Sequence record: NC_014467.1
Direction: 5' to 3' (one strand)
DNA from: Escherichia phage RB16
DNA length: 64,000 nt
Shown: positions 910 to 8,982 of the stretch, piece after piece
Layout: each line of letters begins with the position of its first letter
How positions within the stretch are numbered: position 1 is the first letter of the stretch
Position numbers and translations under genes: made by a program
Notes under the pieces: generated by a model
What the model saw: only the letters and a program-made list of their open reading frames with translations
Told to the model about the DNA's origin: nothing
Database searches by the model: none

Positions 910-3149
910 CGTATTAATTTTACCATATCATCAGTCATCGCTTTATCTTCCAGAATATACCGGATTTGATAGCCATCACTGTTTCTCAGGATTCGAGCAA
1001 TTAACGGATTGCGTTTAGCGAAAATCTCATATTGTTCGTCAACGCGTTCAATCATTGCATGTTCCATTTCTTCATGTCGGGCCTGTGCCACACGAATAGA
1101 CGGGTTCTTTGCTTCTGTCGTTTCACCGTCTTCTGTAGTCTGCATCAACACTTTACCATCAAGCGTGTTCAGAATGTTATAACGACGCGAATCATAACGG
1201 TTTTTAACCATGCGATCAAGGCTAATACCCAAATTTTCGTATAGTTCTTTAACGGAACCACGATACTTTTTCGAAACAAAAGCCGGATACCAGTTAGGTT
1301 TCATTTCTTTTGCAGTCTTGCAGAACAATTCAGCAAGGAACGTATCAAGACAAATCATTCTGCTGTCTGGGATCTTATTCCATAACGAATTACGGAGTGT
1401 ATACACCACACGAACACCAGAGATTTCCATCACAGTAGCCAGGTTATTCATGATGCTTGACATCGAGAAGTTATTCGACTCACTCAACGAACTGTAATCA
1501 TCAACACCATACAGACGCAATGCGTATGCAGATTCGAGGTTTACAAACTCCGCTTTCGTGAGGAACAAATCTTCTTTGTTCAAATCGCCATTGATCCCGA
1601 CCGTGTAACGGTATGCTGTCGGCGTTTTCGGACGCGGTTCAGAATCTTTATCGATTGTTTCGCGTGTTGCTCTCCAGCGACGGCGATCCTCAGTATAAAC
1701 TTCCAGTTCTTCCGTCATTTCACTGGTTTTCAGATAAACGATTTCAGATTCATCATAGTAACCGTTTTTGATGAAGTTCTGTAAATTATCCTGGTTTCTG
1801 TTCGGATCGTATTCAACAAAGTTCATACGGTCAGTTTTGTGAAGCATACAGTACCCGATAGCATACGCACGTACAGACTTCGCGTTGTTATCGTTCTGTA
1901 ACAGATACAGGTTTCTTTGCTTCCACGGGTGCAACATACGCGTAATATCCTGGCGGCGCATGGTTTCTGATTTAAACGTTACCCAACGACAACCGGAACC
2001 TGTACGCTCAAAGCTGCAATCTTTCCCGTCATACGTGTTCGCCCAGTATCCCCAGATTTGCATATTCGTAATCAGGTCTTTACTGTTGAAGTGCATCACC
2101 AGATCCGAAAGCGTAATATTACCAACTCTGAATTTCTTATCGCGGGTAACGAATGATTGCAGCATAGTAGGAAGATTCTGATACCAGATCACCTTTTCAC
2201 GCGTCGTTTTCAGTTTCGCAAAGTCTTCCGTCAGTTCAGAATAGTAACATTCGTTAATACCTTTCAGGCGATCCAGAATAGCTTGCTTGGTGATTTTATC
2301 CAGACTTAGTTCTTCACGGGACGGCATGAAGTCCAGAGTACCCAGGGGGAAATCCAGAATGTAAGCATAATCGCTGTTCTGATAACAATAGAACAGTGAA
2401 TCCCTGAACATATCCAAATCGATCGGATAGCAGATATTACCCATACGAGCGAACAGGCCAGAATAATGTTTTGACTTATAACGGATGATCCCGCGATTAT
2501 TTGCTTCTGTCGGTTGCCAGTTGATATCCAGTTGAACACCAATAAAGCGAGGACGAATAGTTGTAAACGCTTCGTAAACACGAGCGGCTTCACGTTCCCA
2601 TTCTGGGATATCTTCGACGTTAACCGGAACTGTTACCTGAACGCCGTTAGGTTCATCAGTTTCTACAGCATACAGCGGGTCAATGTACGGTTCGCCGTCT
2701 TCATTGAGGTAAGCAGTATAACCGCGCTTCATGCCGTCCTGAATTGATTCTACTGTGAATGTTGAGGTGTAGCAGAACGGGGATTTGCTACCCAGCCCCA
2801 GCGCCCCGATCAGGTCGTCGGTGTCGGTTTTGGTTGATTCGAAATAAACGGTGAATACTTCGTTCACCATGTAATCACTCAGGCCAGTACCGTAATCACG
2901 AACGATGAAACGAGGATCGAGAACGGTCGGTAACTGAACGTCAAAGCGATCCATGTTACCCGCTACGATATGACCATCAATCGCGTTACAAGAAATCTCA
3001 CGAATGATTGCGCGGATCTTGTATTTGTAGATTGTGGATGAAAGGATTTTGAACGCTTTCTTACCTGCTCTCATTCCAAAAGCTCTACGGCTTCCAGACT
3101 CGATACCTACACGATGGACTGTGCTTGCTTGGCTTTCGCGTAACTTCAT
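900..3149 (-). CDS. rIIA: rIIA protein (GHKL-type ATPase-like N-terminus)
   Basis: 749 aa ORF (T4 rIIA is 725 aa); N-terminal ATPase-like motifs; overlaps rIIB start by 10 nt. Confidence 0.8.
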   Translation of the reverse strand: MKLRESQASTVHRVGIESGSRRAFGMRAGKKAFKILSSTIYKYKIRAIIREISCNAIDGHIVAGNMDRFDVQLPTVLDPRFIVRDYGTGLSDYMVNEVFTVYFESTKTDTDDLIGALGLGSKSPFCYTSTFTVESIQDGMKRGYTAYLNEDGEPYIDPLYAVETDEPNGVQVTVPVNVEDIPEWEREAARVYEAFTTIRPRFIGVQLDINWQPTEANNRGIIRYKSKHYSGLFARMGNICYPIDLDMFRDSLFYCYQNSDYAYILDFPLGTLDFMPSREELSLDKITKQAILDRLKGINECYYSELTEDFAKLKTTREKVIWYQNLPTMLQSFVTRDKKFRVGNITLSDLVMHFNSKDLITNMQIWGYWANTYDGKDCSFERTGSGCRWVTFKSETMRRQDITRMLHPWKQRNLYLLQNDNNAKSVRAYAIGYCMLHKTDRMNFVEYDPNRNQDNLQNFIKNGYYDESEIVYLKTSEMTEELEVYTEDRRRWRATRETIDKDSEPRPKTPTAYRYTVGINGDLNKEDLFLTKAEFVNLESAYALRLYGVDDYSSLSESNNFSMSSIMNNLATVMEISGVRVVYTLRNSLWNKIPDSRMICLDTFLAELFCKTAKEMKPNWYPAFVSKKYRGSVKELYENLGISLDRMVKNRYDSRRYNILNTLDGKVLMQTTEDGETTEAKNPSIRVAQARHEEMEHAMIERVDEQYEIFAKRNPLIARILRNSDGYQIRYILEDKAMTDDMVKLIRWK

Positions 3150-4004: not shown

Positions 4005-5294
4005 TTATTTCAATTTCTTCGAAAGTTCTTTCAAATCATTGAGATATTCAGTTTTCGGGGTCGTTTCTTCCCAGTATTTCAGTTGCTTACGCAGTTCATT
4101 CGCTTCGTCTTCCAGCTTTTGACGTTCATCCGTGGTTAAATGGTAGATGTTCATCGCAACCAGGATTTCGGCGTGGTTCTCGCAACCCGCCCACGTAGAG
4201 ACAAGTTTAACCGCTTCGCTGCGACTAAGCCCCTTCAATGCGTCAGGCTGTGCGATCATCTGGTCGATGAAGTCAACCTTCGCCAGCGCTTTATCTAACG
4301 CTTCCTTAGTCTCCTGGATGCGTTTATCAATACGCTGTTGGTAAACACCAATACGGATATCAACGAAGTCTTTCAGCAACGTTTCAGGCCGCTCGTATGA
4401 ATGCAGTTTCCCGTTAAAGATAACGTTGATGTTCGGGTTTGAGTTCTCAATCAATCCGAAATCTTTCAGGATCTTCTCACGGGTAAGCCCGTTTGCGTAC
4501 TCACGTTTCAGGGTGATTTCGTAGCGGAAATCTTCTTTCGATAGATCCTTATAGCTTACGATATACCCTTTCTCTTCCAGCTTATCCAGAATAGAAATAT
4601 ATTTCACGCGATCATACTTGACCGGAATCTCTGTGATCACCAGTTTGGTTTTACCCTGGAGTTCGTACTTGCCGTACATCGTACCGTTTTCAATGTCACC
4701 TTTGAAATGCGGGTATTTCAGATCCAGCGTGAAATCTTTCCCGTTCAGGTAACTAACGCATCCATTCAGAACCGATACCGGATCATGTGGTGGAATGTTG
4801 GTAGCGTATGCTTTCGCGATCCCGCTGAACCCGTTAACCAATACCATCGGAATGATAGGCAGATAATAGGCAGGCGGTACGTGTTCAGGGTCTTCATGCG
4901 GAAGAGTTAAATCTTCGTCCATGTAGATAGCCTTGAACAGCGGAGACAGCTTACATTTGATGTAACGCGGTGCGCCTGGCTTCTTAACCAGACGGGAACC
5001 AAAGAACCCATCACGTTCGAAAAGCGGGATGTTGTTGCACCAGTGCGCCGCCATGAGAGACAACGCTTCTTCAACGGATGTTTCCCCGTGGTGATAACCA
5101 TACATAGCAACACCGCCAGCGATAGAGGCTACTTTCTGGAAGCCTGTACCGCCTTTTGCAGCGGAATGTATGAAGAAACGGTGAACGGGTTTGAACCCGT
5201 CTACCAGGTGCGGGATCGCACGAGAATAAATTGTGTAAAGGGCAAACGTAAGCCCTTCAACCTGCACAACGTCTTTAATACTTCGTTCCATCAA
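4005..5294 (-). CDS. 52: DNA topoisomerase II medium subunit (GyrA-like, gp52)
   Basis: 429 aa; GyrA N-terminal-like sequence; size matches T4 gp52 (442 aa); adjacent to gp39. Confidence 0.8.
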   Translation of the reverse strand: MMERSIKDVVQVEGLTFALYTIYSRAIPHLVDGFKPVHRFFIHSAAKGGTGFQKVASIAGGVAMYGYHHGETSVEEALSLMAAHWCNNIPLFERDGFFGSRLVKKPGAPRYIKCKLSPLFKAIYMDEDLTLPHEDPEHVPPAYYLPIIPMVLVNGFSGIAKAYATNIPPHDPVSVLNGCVSYLNGKDFTLDLKYPHFKGDIENGTMYGKYELQGKTKLVITEIPVKYDRVKYISILDKLEEKGYIVSYKDLSKEDFRYEITLKREYANGLTREKILKDFGLIENSNPNINVIFNGKLHSYERPETLLKDFVDIRIGVYQQRIDKRIQETKEALDKALAKVDFIDQMIAQPDALKGLSRSEAVKLVSTWAGCENHAEILVAMNIYHLTTDERQKLEDEANELRKQLKYWEETTPKTEYLNDLKELSKKLK

Positions 5295-7192
5295 TCAACC
5301 CTTGAAAATCTATGTTTTCCGTTTACCCAGTCTTTACGCGGATCGGAATCATCACCGAAACACAGTTCCAGAACGTCTTTGTATTCGTCGCCCAGTACGA
5401 TTGTATCGTATTTCAACTGGTCGCCCAACACCCGATCGTAATCTTCTTTACGCAAAGAACCCAGCCCTTTGATGTATCGTGCCTCTTTCGCTTTATCACG
5501 GAAAGGCGTGAAATCGTCCAGAGAGTAGAACCATTTTTCTTCACGTCCGACTTTCGCAATGATAATCGGTGTGCGAATATACCGGATCTTTTTCTTCGCG
5601 AACAACTCAGGCCAACGGCTAAAGAATGCAATTAACAGGGTGAGAATATCGCCCCCGTCAACGTCAGCATCCACCATGATCCCGATGTTGTCGTAAGTCA
5701 TTTCGGACGAGTCGCCTGGATGGAGATTCAGGATCGCCATTAACTCGAATAATTCTTTGTTTTTGAGAATGTCGGAATTGCTCATTCCCCAGGTGTTCAA
5801 CGGTTTGCCACGTAGCGGAAACGCGCCTTGTGTCTCTTCGTTTCTGCACTCGATAAACTGCCCCACAGCGGAATCACCTTCCGTCAGAAACAAAGTGGTT
5901 TCTACTCCATCGGTATCAATTCCTGATGCTGGAACATGTTTTGCAACCTTCGCCTTTTTCGCTTTCTTTTTCGCTTTCGTAATGGCTGCTGCTTCTGCTG
6001 CCTGTTTGCGAATCAAAGCGGACTCGATGATCGGAGTGATTATTTCAGAAGTATCCATAATCTGTTTCGCGATCTTCTTGTAGTTCAGTCCGGCGTGGTT
6101 GTTGAACTCCCCAGCAGTGTTTGTCAGTTTTTCTTTCGTCTGACTATCAAAAGCTGGTGCATTGAAGTTATGCAAAAACACGACCAAAGTCAAACATTCT
6201 TTTACACGGGCTTTCGGGATCTCGATAGCGTGTTTCTTCTTGATCATCGGTTCCAGTTCGGTATAGATACCATCGATCATGCAATCGACGTGTACACCAC
6301 CGTTTTTTGTGTCCAGACCGTTGACAAATGATTTCTGTTTGAACCCGTCTTCTGTGCTTGCCAGGATGAAACTGATTTTGTTGTTTGTCTGAACAATCGT
6401 TTTCTCTCCGTACATCGCACCATACATCGCGAATTTATTCGGGAGAACTTCATTGTTGTACGTAAATTTAACCGAAGGGAATGCCACTGCAAGCGCCATA
6501 AGGCGATCTTTGATGACTTCCTTTGTTTCTTCGTCGATACCATCCACACCGAAAATTGAGAAATCAGGGGTAAACTTAACAGTAGTTCCCTGTTCTTTCG
6601 TCGGGCTGGTTCGGTAATCCATATTCTGTGCGCCGTCAGTACAGTTGATCGTGACTTTGCGCTTACCGTTGGATGTCTCACCGATAAAGATTGAACTGTA
6701 ACAGTTAGTCAGGAAAGAACCTACACCGTTCATCCCCATTGTTACGCGGTTTTCATCATCGAAGTTTGAACCTGATTTTGCCATAGTCCAGGCTGCAACA
6801 GGTTTAGGGACAATTTTCCCTTCCGGCGTTCTCACGTCATCTTGTGGAATACCGCGCCCGTTATCTGAGATTGTCACCAAATTATGATCAATCTTCACTT
6901 CGATTTTGTTCGCGAATTTAAAATCTGTACGGATCGCTTCATCGATAGAGTTATCGAGGATTTCGTTGATGATTTTCACCAGACCTTCGACGTATTCCAC
7001 TTTGCGGAACTTACCCTGAATGAAGCGTTCGTGTGCTTCTCGGTTCACTGAACCCACATACATGTTAGGACGTTTGCGAATGTGATCGCGATCACTTAGG
7101 CAGAATGATTCATCGACTTCCACGCCTTTTGGCGTTTCCGGTACTTTCTGCGGTTCTTCTTCGTCCATTAAGAAATCTAAACTCATATTCAC
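5291..7192 (-). CDS. 39: DNA topoisomerase II large subunit (GyrB-like, gp39 with gp60 portion fused)
   Basis: 633 aa; GHKL ATPase motifs (ILDNSIDEA, DNGRGIP), TOPRIM region; length equals T4 gp39+gp60. Confidence 0.85.
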   Translation of the reverse strand: MNMSLDFLMDEEEPQKVPETPKGVEVDESFCLSDRDHIRKRPNMYVGSVNREAHERFIQGKFRKVEYVEGLVKIINEILDNSIDEAIRTDFKFANKIEVKIDHNLVTISDNGRGIPQDDVRTPEGKIVPKPVAAWTMAKSGSNFDDENRVTMGMNGVGSFLTNCYSSIFIGETSNGKRKVTINCTDGAQNMDYRTSPTKEQGTTVKFTPDFSIFGVDGIDEETKEVIKDRLMALAVAFPSVKFTYNNEVLPNKFAMYGAMYGEKTIVQTNNKISFILASTEDGFKQKSFVNGLDTKNGGVHVDCMIDGIYTELEPMIKKKHAIEIPKARVKECLTLVVFLHNFNAPAFDSQTKEKLTNTAGEFNNHAGLNYKKIAKQIMDTSEIITPIIESALIRKQAAEAAAITKAKKKAKKAKVAKHVPASGIDTDGVETTLFLTEGDSAVGQFIECRNEETQGAFPLRGKPLNTWGMSNSDILKNKELFELMAILNLHPGDSSEMTYDNIGIMVDADVDGGDILTLLIAFFSRWPELFAKKKIRYIRTPIIIAKVGREEKWFYSLDDFTPFRDKAKEARYIKGLGSLRKEDYDRVLGDQLKYDTIVLGDEYKDVLELCFGDDSDPRKDWVNGKHRFSRVD

Positions 7193-7230: not shown

Positions 7231-7251
7231 AAAGAAAACCCCTTTCGGGGT
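7231..7251 (-). terminator. intrinsic terminator hairpin (minus-strand sense AACCCC-GAAA-GGGGTT + U-run)
   Basis: GC stem with GNRA loop on the sense strand followed by TTTTCTTTTT; immediately after the stop of 7252..7461. Confidence 0.5.
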
Positions 7252-7461
7252 TTAAGCATCTTTGATTTTTTGAAGAATGGGTATCAGTTCTTCAACTTGC
7301 ATTCGCGTTAACGCGATCTCAAAACCGTATTGGTTAATTCGAGTGATTTGCGACACCGATTCTGAATCAAATTCAACAATCAGTTTGTCGCAATATTCTT
7401 GCGGTTGAAACCCATCAGCATACCCGTAATCGTCGGGTATGGTTTCGTTTATTTTAGACAT
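7252..7461 (-). CDS. hypothetical protein
   Basis: ORF with RBS AAGGTGG before the second Met of the track ORF; start overlaps the stop of the upstream zinc-ribbon ORF. Confidence 0.4.
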   Translation of the reverse strand: MSKINETIPDDYGYADGFQPQEYCDKLIVEFDSESVSQITRINQYGFEIALTRMQVEELIPILQKIKDA

Positions 7462-7615
7462 AGGGAAAGCCACCTTTTACCATTTGGGGCTTATCAACTG
7501 TTCGATGTGCTTCGCCCCCGCATTCACAGTCCTTTGGTGCATCGCGGGTCGCAATGCTGGACATTTTCGGGAACTCTTTTTCACACTTTTTGCATTTATA
7601 GGTATAAGTCGGCAT
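7454..7615 (-). CDS. small zinc-ribbon protein (CxxC-x18-CxC), 53 aa
   Basis: Not in ORF track (<60 aa); hand-translated MPTYTYKCKKCEKEFPKMSSIATRDAPKDCECGGEAHRTVDKPQMVKGGFPYV; TAATG overlap with upstream stop and 8-nt overlap with downstream start. Confidence 0.45.
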   Translation of the reverse strand: MPTYTYKCKKCEKEFPKMSSIATRDAPKDCECGGEAHRTVDKPQMVKGGFPYV

Positions 7616-8052
7616 TAATAGATCTCTTTTAAACTCAACATATCAATAAGATTAGCTCTACGCATATCAAACACACATTGTGATTTACCTGCATACAACC
7701 GATCAACTTCATATACCATACAAACGAAACCACAATTGTGTAAGCGTTCGCGTTCGTATTTGTTAAACCATTTTGACAGTTTAGGCAATGAAGCAAATCC
7801 GAAATGAAATCCGTCGAAACCGCCACCATTAAGACTACGAGAAAGTCGCAGATCTTCCCAAGGGGCCGGATGTCGGTCGTCGTCAATGGATACACAAGGA
7901 CGAGGATTAATATAAAATTGTTCTAACCATTTTAACGTTTTGTTGTTTATTACTTGCGTTACGTATGGCCCGATATTGCGAGTCCATTGCGTTTTTCCAC
8001 AATTCTGATCACGAATAACAGAAACGTTCAATTCAACACGGTAGACTAACAT
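7615..8052 (-). CDS. hypothetical protein
   Basis: 145 aa ORF in tightly packed minus-strand operon; no recognisable motif. Confidence 0.45.
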   Translation of the reverse strand: MLVYRVELNVSVIRDQNCGKTQWTRNIGPYVTQVINNKTLKWLEQFYINPRPCVSIDDDRHPAPWEDLRLSRSLNGGGFDGFHFGFASLPKLSKWFNKYERERLHNCGFVCMVYEVDRLYAGKSQCVFDMRRANLIDMLSLKEIY

Positions 8053-8072: not shown

Positions 8073-8711
8073 TTAACTACAGGTATCGTACCACTTCTGT
8101 AGTTTCTTCGCAACAAGTTTATTCACTACTTGCGCGATTTCGTGCGTTCCGTGGGTTGCGTTCAGTTCCAGGTTGATGACATCCAGAGCACACAGGATCA
8201 CATCAACGCTTTCCTCTACGATGTTACCGCCTCGCTGGGGCTGAATGATACATTCAGACACTTCCCCAACTTCTGCCGCCATGTGATGCACTACGTCGCT
8301 TTTGTGGCGTTTCTTAACCCGGTGCGCAACCTTAAAGAAGTCATCCAGCACAACAGAGGTTGATTCACGCGGGGCGACCTCGCCTCCTGCATTTGCTTCT
8401 TCCAGAATTTTTCTGAATAGTTCCGGGACAACCACATCGTTTCTTGTCGCTTCTGCTTCTTCGCGTGTTGCGATGTATACCGGATTAAACAGGGTTTTCA
8501 GCGTGTCAAACGTAACCGGACACGGGATGCCCTCAAGATAAACTGAGTTCAGCATTACAATGCTGATTTTACGCGGCGCGTTGAAGTCCATCGGATTCTT
8601 GCGCAATGCTTCATAGATACGACGAACCGGATCGGTCGGTTTGCACGTTTGCACAACCGCCAAGAAAATTGATTTTGGGGCGTACATGTCGCCTACTTTA
8701 TACTTGCTCAT
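8073..8711 (-). CDS. hypothetical protein, possible MazG-like all-alpha NTP pyrophosphohydrolase fold
   Basis: Start placed at MSKYKVGD (TAATG coupling with upstream stop); C-terminal acidic pattern AEVGEVSE...EESVDVILCALDVINLE is MazG/HisE-like; weak. Confidence 0.3.
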   Translation of the reverse strand: MSKYKVGDMYAPKSIFLAVVQTCKPTDPVRRIYEALRKNPMDFNAPRKISIVMLNSVYLEGIPCPVTFDTLKTLFNPVYIATREEAEATRNDVVVPELFRKILEEANAGGEVAPRESTSVVLDDFFKVAHRVKKRHKSDVVHHMAAEVGEVSECIIQPQRGGNIVEESVDVILCALDVINLELNATHGTHEIAQVVNKLVAKKLQKWYDTCS

Positions 8712-8982
8712 TAACAATGCCTTTATAGTAACCAAAAATAAAACAGTTCACGGTCGGGCGTTCACCAGGGAAATGAACACATTGCATGATGCGTTCTGCC
8801 ATTAAAACATCGTCAAGATAAACACACGTTGTTTCTTCGTTATAATGGCTGTCATATGATGTACGCTTAACCATGCCAGGCAAACCAGCAATGTGCATGA
8901 ATTTGGCGTTGCTGCACGGCTTTCCTGGCTTATCGTCGTAACATAACACTACATTCGTTTTGCTGTTCTTTGGTCTGCTCAT
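8698..8982 (-). CDS. hypothetical protein
   Basis: 94 aa; ATGA start/stop coupling with upstream gene. Confidence 0.4.
   Translation of the reverse strand: MSRPKNSKTNVVLCYDDKPGKPCSNAKFMHIAGLPGMVKRTSYDSHYNEETTCVYLDDVLMAERIMQCVHFPGERPTVNCFIFGYYKGIVNEQV

Follow-up and report, generated by a model that had tools for sequence, protein, structure and literature searches.

Two reports describe the product of bacteriophage T4 gene 39.2 (NwgI; 58 amino acids, aa) as a subtle modulator of GroES/GroEL, which shifts GroEL to an open conformation to which host or phage cochaperonins can bind; T4 deleted for 39.2 is unable to grow on specific groEL mutant hosts (PMC5153855, PMC4396842). Suppression of groEL or groES mutants in an allele-specific manner is reported for the T4 gene as well (PMC5153855). 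The T4 39.2 transcript belongs to the early class (PMC9697503, supplement file 4). We analysed a 64,000-nucleotide stretch of the Escherichia phage RB16 genome (NC_014467.1; the whole stretch is referred to as the window), in which a 53-codon open reading frame (ORF) encodes a four-cysteine protein homologous to T4 Gp39.2. The experimental literature that we found on the 39.2 orthologous group consisted of the T4 work on GroEL only. The homologues of phages RB69, RB43 and RB49 reportedly behave like that of T4. The ORF had been picked out in a first-pass annotation made from the letters of the window, with exact coordinates (Table 1) and no stated strand; it lies on the minus strand.

The window belongs to a Pseudotevenvirus. 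A 2-kb stretch around the gene matches Escherichia phage Lw1 at 97.8% identity and RB43 at 91% where the two align (58% of the stretch). Both the protein (MPTYTYKCKKCEKEFPKMSSIATRDAPKDCECGGEAHRTVDKPQMVKGGFPYV) and the DNA of the gene are identical to Lw1_gp008 (YP_008060532.1), which is labelled 'FmdB-like transcriptional regulator'; the roughly 2% divergence of Lw1 from the window over 2 kb falls outside the 39.2 gene. The RB43 counterpart, ORF007c or gene 39.2 (YP_238983.1), differs at two residues, K9T and P16S. RB43 39.2 and Lw1 gp008 have the same length of 53 aa and the same place, between a motB.2-like gene and a 69-aa gene and upstream of topoisomerase II, and neither differs in substance from the window gene. 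The gene is already known, being annotated in the public Lw1 and RB43 records and in many other phage records. The first-pass annotation had called the ORF unannotated and likely to be a real gene missed by length filters. The first statement was true of the ORF track from which it had worked but not of the public genomes; as to the second, the gene is real and was hidden by the length filter, but it had not been overlooked, because public records carry it as RB43 gene 39.2 and Lw1_gp008.

The relationship to T4 is more distant. The window protein shares 44% identity with the 58-aa T4 Gp39.2 over 52 aligned positions (pairwise E = 4e-12), and a tblastn search of the whole phage collection reached the T4-type phages at E = 5e-4. 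The two proteins have in common the MPxYxYKC start, four Cys residues, an (E/T)RD motif, a Gly-Gly-Phe tail and a match to the TIGR02605 model, on which T4 Gp39.2 scores 45.7 bits. T4 and the window alike have 39.2 just upstream of the gene for the topoisomerase II large subunit; gp31 is likewise encoded in both phages. Because of this sequence identity and the site upstream of the topoisomerase large-subunit gene, we take the window gene and T4 39.2 to be positional orthologues. The two loci differ in several respects. The Cys residues are spaced Cx4C...CxxC in T4 Gp39.2 and CxxC...CxC in the window protein, and the tail reads GGFYDLLKG in the former and GGFPYV in the latter. The T4 gene is flanked by goF and 39.1 (gene order goF, 39.2, 39.1, 39), whereas the window gene is flanked by the motB.2-like gene and an unrelated 69-aa gene. 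Furthermore, the topoisomerase large subunit is split into genes 39 and 60 in T4 and is encoded by one ORF in the window.

The T4 records themselves disagree on the length of 39.2. In the T4 reference (NC_000866, 5702..5839) it is annotated as 45 aa, because that sequence departs from T4 'wild' by one extra T and several substitutions. T4 'wild' (KJ477684) encodes the 58-aa protein of the literature (1501..1677 of the retrieved stretch), and the gene is unannotated there.

Codon-level conservation was examined in homologous DNA from eight related phages (Lw1, RB43, GuL6, CfP1, leB, PMBT1, JC221 and PhiK2046). Over the first 47 codons, variable columns at codon positions 1, 2 and 3 numbered 6, 6 and 37, respectively. 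In the 39.2 frame the ratio of nonsynonymous to synonymous change (dN/dS) was 0.02-0.16 in pairwise comparisons. The pooled ratio of nonsynonymous to synonymous differences (pN/pS) was 0.14 in this frame, whereas four of the other five gave 2.2-5.3; the fifth, an antisense frame with a value of 0.26, has the same third-position phase and contains stop codons. Loss of the reading frame in related phages had been put forward as evidence that would speak against a gene, and what we found was a conserved frame. The protein also scored above the curated cut-offs of two family models, Pfam PF09723 (Zn_ribbon_8; 40.2 bits against 34.4, E = 3.4e-10) and NCBIfam TIGR02605 (FmdB family zinc ribbon, CxxC_CxxC_SSSS; 46 bits against 31.3, E = 4e-12). 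Matches over at least 80% of the query were obtained by tblastn in 481 phage records. Since the frame is kept in related phages, the profile scores are above cut-off and matches occur in this many records, the 53-codon ORF is a real gene under purifying selection. Its start codon is fixed by the N-terminal motif MPxYx[YF], which is present in 145 of the 152 best family representatives; the window protein begins MPTYTYKC.

ORF length by itself was no better than chance at this locus, where two longer ORFs cover the same bases in antisense (77 aa at 7399..7632 and 59 aa at 7439..7618, both on the plus strand). Either of them as the true gene was ruled out: their pN/pS values (2.25-4.16) exceed 2, and they are therefore spurious.

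The 53-aa protein belongs to the FmdB zinc-ribbon family and is assigned to PHROG 1076. The first-pass annotation had read a CxxC-x18-CxC pattern as a small zinc-ribbon signature, and both parts of that reading held: the Cys residues are arranged as Cys8-x2-Cys11-x18-Cys30-x-Cys32, and the two zinc-ribbon models match. As in other members of the family, the domain opens with MPxYxY at the initiator Met and has two Cys pairs about 17-18 residues apart. The protein differs in its second pair: the family norm is two CxxC pairs about 17 residues apart, whereas here a CxxC and a CxC are separated by 18. Many bacterial FmdB members have a long low-complexity C-terminal region, which the 53-aa protein lacks.

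A word-indexed protein search returned only 4 near-identical matches, and an exhaustive profile search was used for the breadth of the family; it retrieved 13,913 representative clusters at E <= 0.001. The four-Cys pattern was found in 143 of the 152 best representatives. Of these 143, 23 have CxC as the second pair, a minority but recurrent variant, and in at least two of the nine representatives without the pattern His replaces the second Cys of the first pair. The spacing within either pair differs by lineage (CxC, CxxC or Cx4C) and is unusually variable for one family. In an alignment of 15 phage homologues M1, P2, Y4, Y6, C8, C11, R24, C32 and P43 were invariant. C30 was kept in all rows but one, and that exception, Bue1, is an alignment slip, the protein still having CKEC. 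All four Cys, whose conservation had been suggested as a check on the gene, are kept in the 15 homologues. In a wider set of 99 family members C8 was invariant and C11 at least 90% conserved. This pattern of conservation fits metal ligands on a zinc ribbon, and the protein would accordingly be expected to bind zinc.

The C-terminal end carries a Gly-aromatic motif, which is GGFPY in the window protein, GGFYD in T4-type phages and GSGWY or SGFY in many bacterial members. Such a motif lies about 17 residues past the second Cys pair in 61 of the 152 best representatives. Between the tail of the window protein (VKGGFPYV) and that of the T4 group (V(H/N)GGFYD) the Gly-Gly-Phe and an aromatic residue are retained, but the exact motif is not. 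The AlphaFold2 models placed three strands at residues 3-8, 14-18 and 35-39, with a predicted local distance difference test score (pLDDT) of about 70; the tail had a pLDDT of about 50 in both models, and in the first its residues 43-50 fell below 50. The nearest folds were generic zinc ribbons (bL33, Rpb12/RpoP, RbpA and the MCM zinc module), and these matches were non-significant. A sequence search of the PDB gave nothing beyond weak matches to the 'YKCxxCxKxF' knuckles of C2H2 fingers, which were dismissed as chance rather than homology.

GroEL modulation is the most likely function of the protein because T4 Gp39.2 (NwgI) is reported to act in this way, and by homology to it we consider that the window gene probably encodes a zinc-ribbon protein whose action on GroEL favours the binding of cochaperonins and the folding of phage proteins. 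The window also encodes a homologue of the GroEL cochaperonin gp31 (Table 1), which shows that this phage relies on host GroEL; we infer a link between this homologue and that of 39.2. The gp31 homologue directly follows a 174-aa ORF, whose end it overlaps. The 39.2 homologue lies in a tightly packed string of minus-strand genes, and its T4 counterpart is transcribed early. In the mechanism that we propose, the product of the homologue would comprise a four-Cys zinc ribbon of three short beta strands followed by a flexible Gly-aromatic tail. This protein would bind, or otherwise act on, the host GroEL chaperonin and bias it to the open form that accepts either GroES or the gp31-type cochaperonin of the phage itself. 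Phage proteins, classically the major capsid protein, could then fold on hosts whose GroEL is poorly matched to the phage.

A different target is the strongest of the alternatives, and we regard it as unlikely. The protein would then be a zinc-ribbon adaptor for another protein, such as the adjacent topoisomerase II or some host factor apart from GroEL, and what is seen with GroEL in T4 would be an indirect effect or one specific to that lineage. The topoisomerase large-subunit gene does consistently adjoin 39.2 in T4-like phages, and the T4 record states that gene 31 'also affects topoisomerase'; in other phage families, homologues occur in varied contexts, and those of phiTE, CR3 and CR9, for example, directly follow a MazG-like pyrophosphatase. 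The adjacency in T4-like phages is, however, a matter of conserved gene order and not necessarily of function, a terminator stands between 39.2 and the topoisomerase gene, and nothing experimental that we found points to such a target.

More doubtful still is a role as a small transcriptional regulator or nucleic-acid binder. The first-pass annotation had suggested that the protein might be regulatory or nucleic-acid-binding, and we found no evidence behind the guess. RefSeq records and PHROG 1076 carry the designation 'FmdB-like transcriptional regulator', which implies such a role, but it is inherited from the name of the family. Among the fold neighbours are the RNA-polymerase-associated Rpb12/RpoP and RbpA as well as the ribosomal bL33; being non-significant, these matches reflect the generic shape of a zinc ribbon. 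In Erwinia phage Bue1 the homologue adjoins a gp33-like late transcription factor. The genetics and biochemistry that we found on the orthologue nevertheless concern GroEL only, we found no literature report that tested DNA binding or regulation for any FmdB family member, and a domain search of the 53-aa protein recognised no DNA-binding domain besides the zinc ribbon. As for the 53 codons being merely a chance ORF with fortuitous Cys codons and no functional gene, a reading invited by its shortness and by the spurious ORFs of similar or greater length on the opposite strand, it is already refuted by the codon-phase conservation, the profile scores, the spread over phage records and the N-terminal motif described above.

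The 39.2 homologue overlaps both neighbouring genes. At the upstream junction, where the first-pass annotation had described a TAATG overlap with the preceding stop, the TAA occupies 7617..7615 and the ATG of the 39.2 homologue 7615..7613, so that the two have one base in common. According to annotated coordinates, this 1-nucleotide junction is common to Lw1, RB43, GuL6, CfP1, leB, PMBT1, PhiK2046 and phiTE. A purine-rich AAAGAGA lies 8 nucleotides 5' of the ATG. At the other end, the ATG of the downstream 69-aa gene (7461..7459) lies within the last codons of the 39.2 homologue, CCC TAT GTC TAA. Because the 69-aa gene starts inside these final codons, the genes overlap by 8 nucleotides (ATGTCTAA); an overlap had been noted before as one of stop and start, but the stop does not literally lie on the start codon. 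The first-pass annotation had called the ORF translationally coupled on both sides; from these overlaps, such coupling of the 39.2 homologue to its neighbours appears plausible.

Table 1. Positions of the 39.2 homologue, its sequence motifs and junction, the genes around it and the cochaperonin gene in the window.
Feature	Coordinates	Strand	Basis or remark
Gene 39.2 homologue, FmdB-family zinc ribbon, 53 aa + stop	7454..7615	-	ORF, PF09723, TIGR02605, pN/pS
First Cys knuckle CKKC, codons 8-11	7583..7594	-	C8 and C11 invariant in 15 phage homologues
Second Cys knuckle CEC, codons 30-32, CxC variant of the usual CxxC	7520..7528	-	
C-terminal Gly-aromatic tail motif GGFPY, codons 48-52	7460..7474	-	Homologue comparison
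TAATG stop/start junction with upstream gene	7613..7617	-	Read from sequence
Upstream gene, 145 aa, annotated motB.2-like, phrog_1106	7615..8052	-	
Downstream gene, 69 aa, phrog_26912, insertion specific to sublineage	7252..7461	-	
Terminator-like hairpin AAACCCCGAAAGGGGTTT + T run, closes the gene string before the topoisomerase gene	7236..7253	-	
Topoisomerase II large subunit, single 633-aa ORF	5291..7192	-	RB43 annotation: fused 60plus39
gp31-type GroEL cochaperonin homologue, 118 aa	49163..49519	+	tblastn of T4 gp31: 37% identity, E = 4e-16

The order of genes in the window is motB.2-like, 39.2, the 69-aa gene, the terminator and the 60plus39 topoisomerase. Among the phages compared, the 69-aa gene (phrog_26912) was confined to the window, Lw1, RB43 and GuL6, where it stands as an insertion after gene 39.2 and ahead of the terminator hairpin. 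With this insertion the C-terminus of the 39.2 protein changes from ...DGFPYNK to ...GGFPYV. The hairpin, which carries a terminator annotation in CfP1, stands directly 3' of 39.2 in CfP1, leB, PMBT1 and PhiK2046, and in leB, PMBT1 and PhiK2046 the topoisomerase gene follows 39.2 directly. The 8-nucleotide downstream overlap is confined to the RB43/Lw1/GuL6 sublineage and is not ancestral. The 69-aa gene was considered as a homologue of T4 39.1 and ruled out, as it has no similarity to T4 39.1.

Two genes upstream of the 39.2 homologue, at 8073..8735 on the minus strand, lies a gene whose product has a MazG-like domain at its C-terminus (phrog_1247, E = 4e-13). A MazG-like pyrophosphatase gene directly precedes the 39.2 homologue, with a stop/start overlap, in phiTE, CR3 and CR9, which are unrelated phages (in phiTE, 1139..1677 of the retrieved stretch). 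Linkage between MazG-like genes and 39.2 may thus be recurrent. Beyond phages, two family members were located on contigs of 1-2 kb, which are too short to assess linkage to groES or groEL. On a contig from a soil metagenome, two Zn_ribbon_8 genes of 86 and 76 aa lie in tandem (1367..1867 of the stretch).

Little of this is new, given that the closest published genomes already annotate the gene and that a function has been published for its T4 orthologue. The locus does illustrate how a 60-aa ORF cut-off hides a strongly conserved gene of 53 aa and yet lists a spurious antisense ORF of 77 aa in the same place. The widespread label 'FmdB-like transcriptional regulator' is moreover at odds with the sole experimental evidence that we found on the orthologous group, which concerns GroEL modulation. 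Small phage proteins that adjust host chaperonins are poorly characterised, and the window protein, two residues away from RB43 Gp39.2, offers an easy second test case. A wider and highly speculative proposal, which we think has little chance of being right, would have GroEL engaged through the Gly-aromatic tail and FmdB proteins acting in general as small modulators of chaperonins rather than as regulators; it draws solely on the T4 precedent and the shared motif. If it were true, the huge bacterial FmdB family, for which 'regulator' is only a name, might consist of chaperonin modulators.
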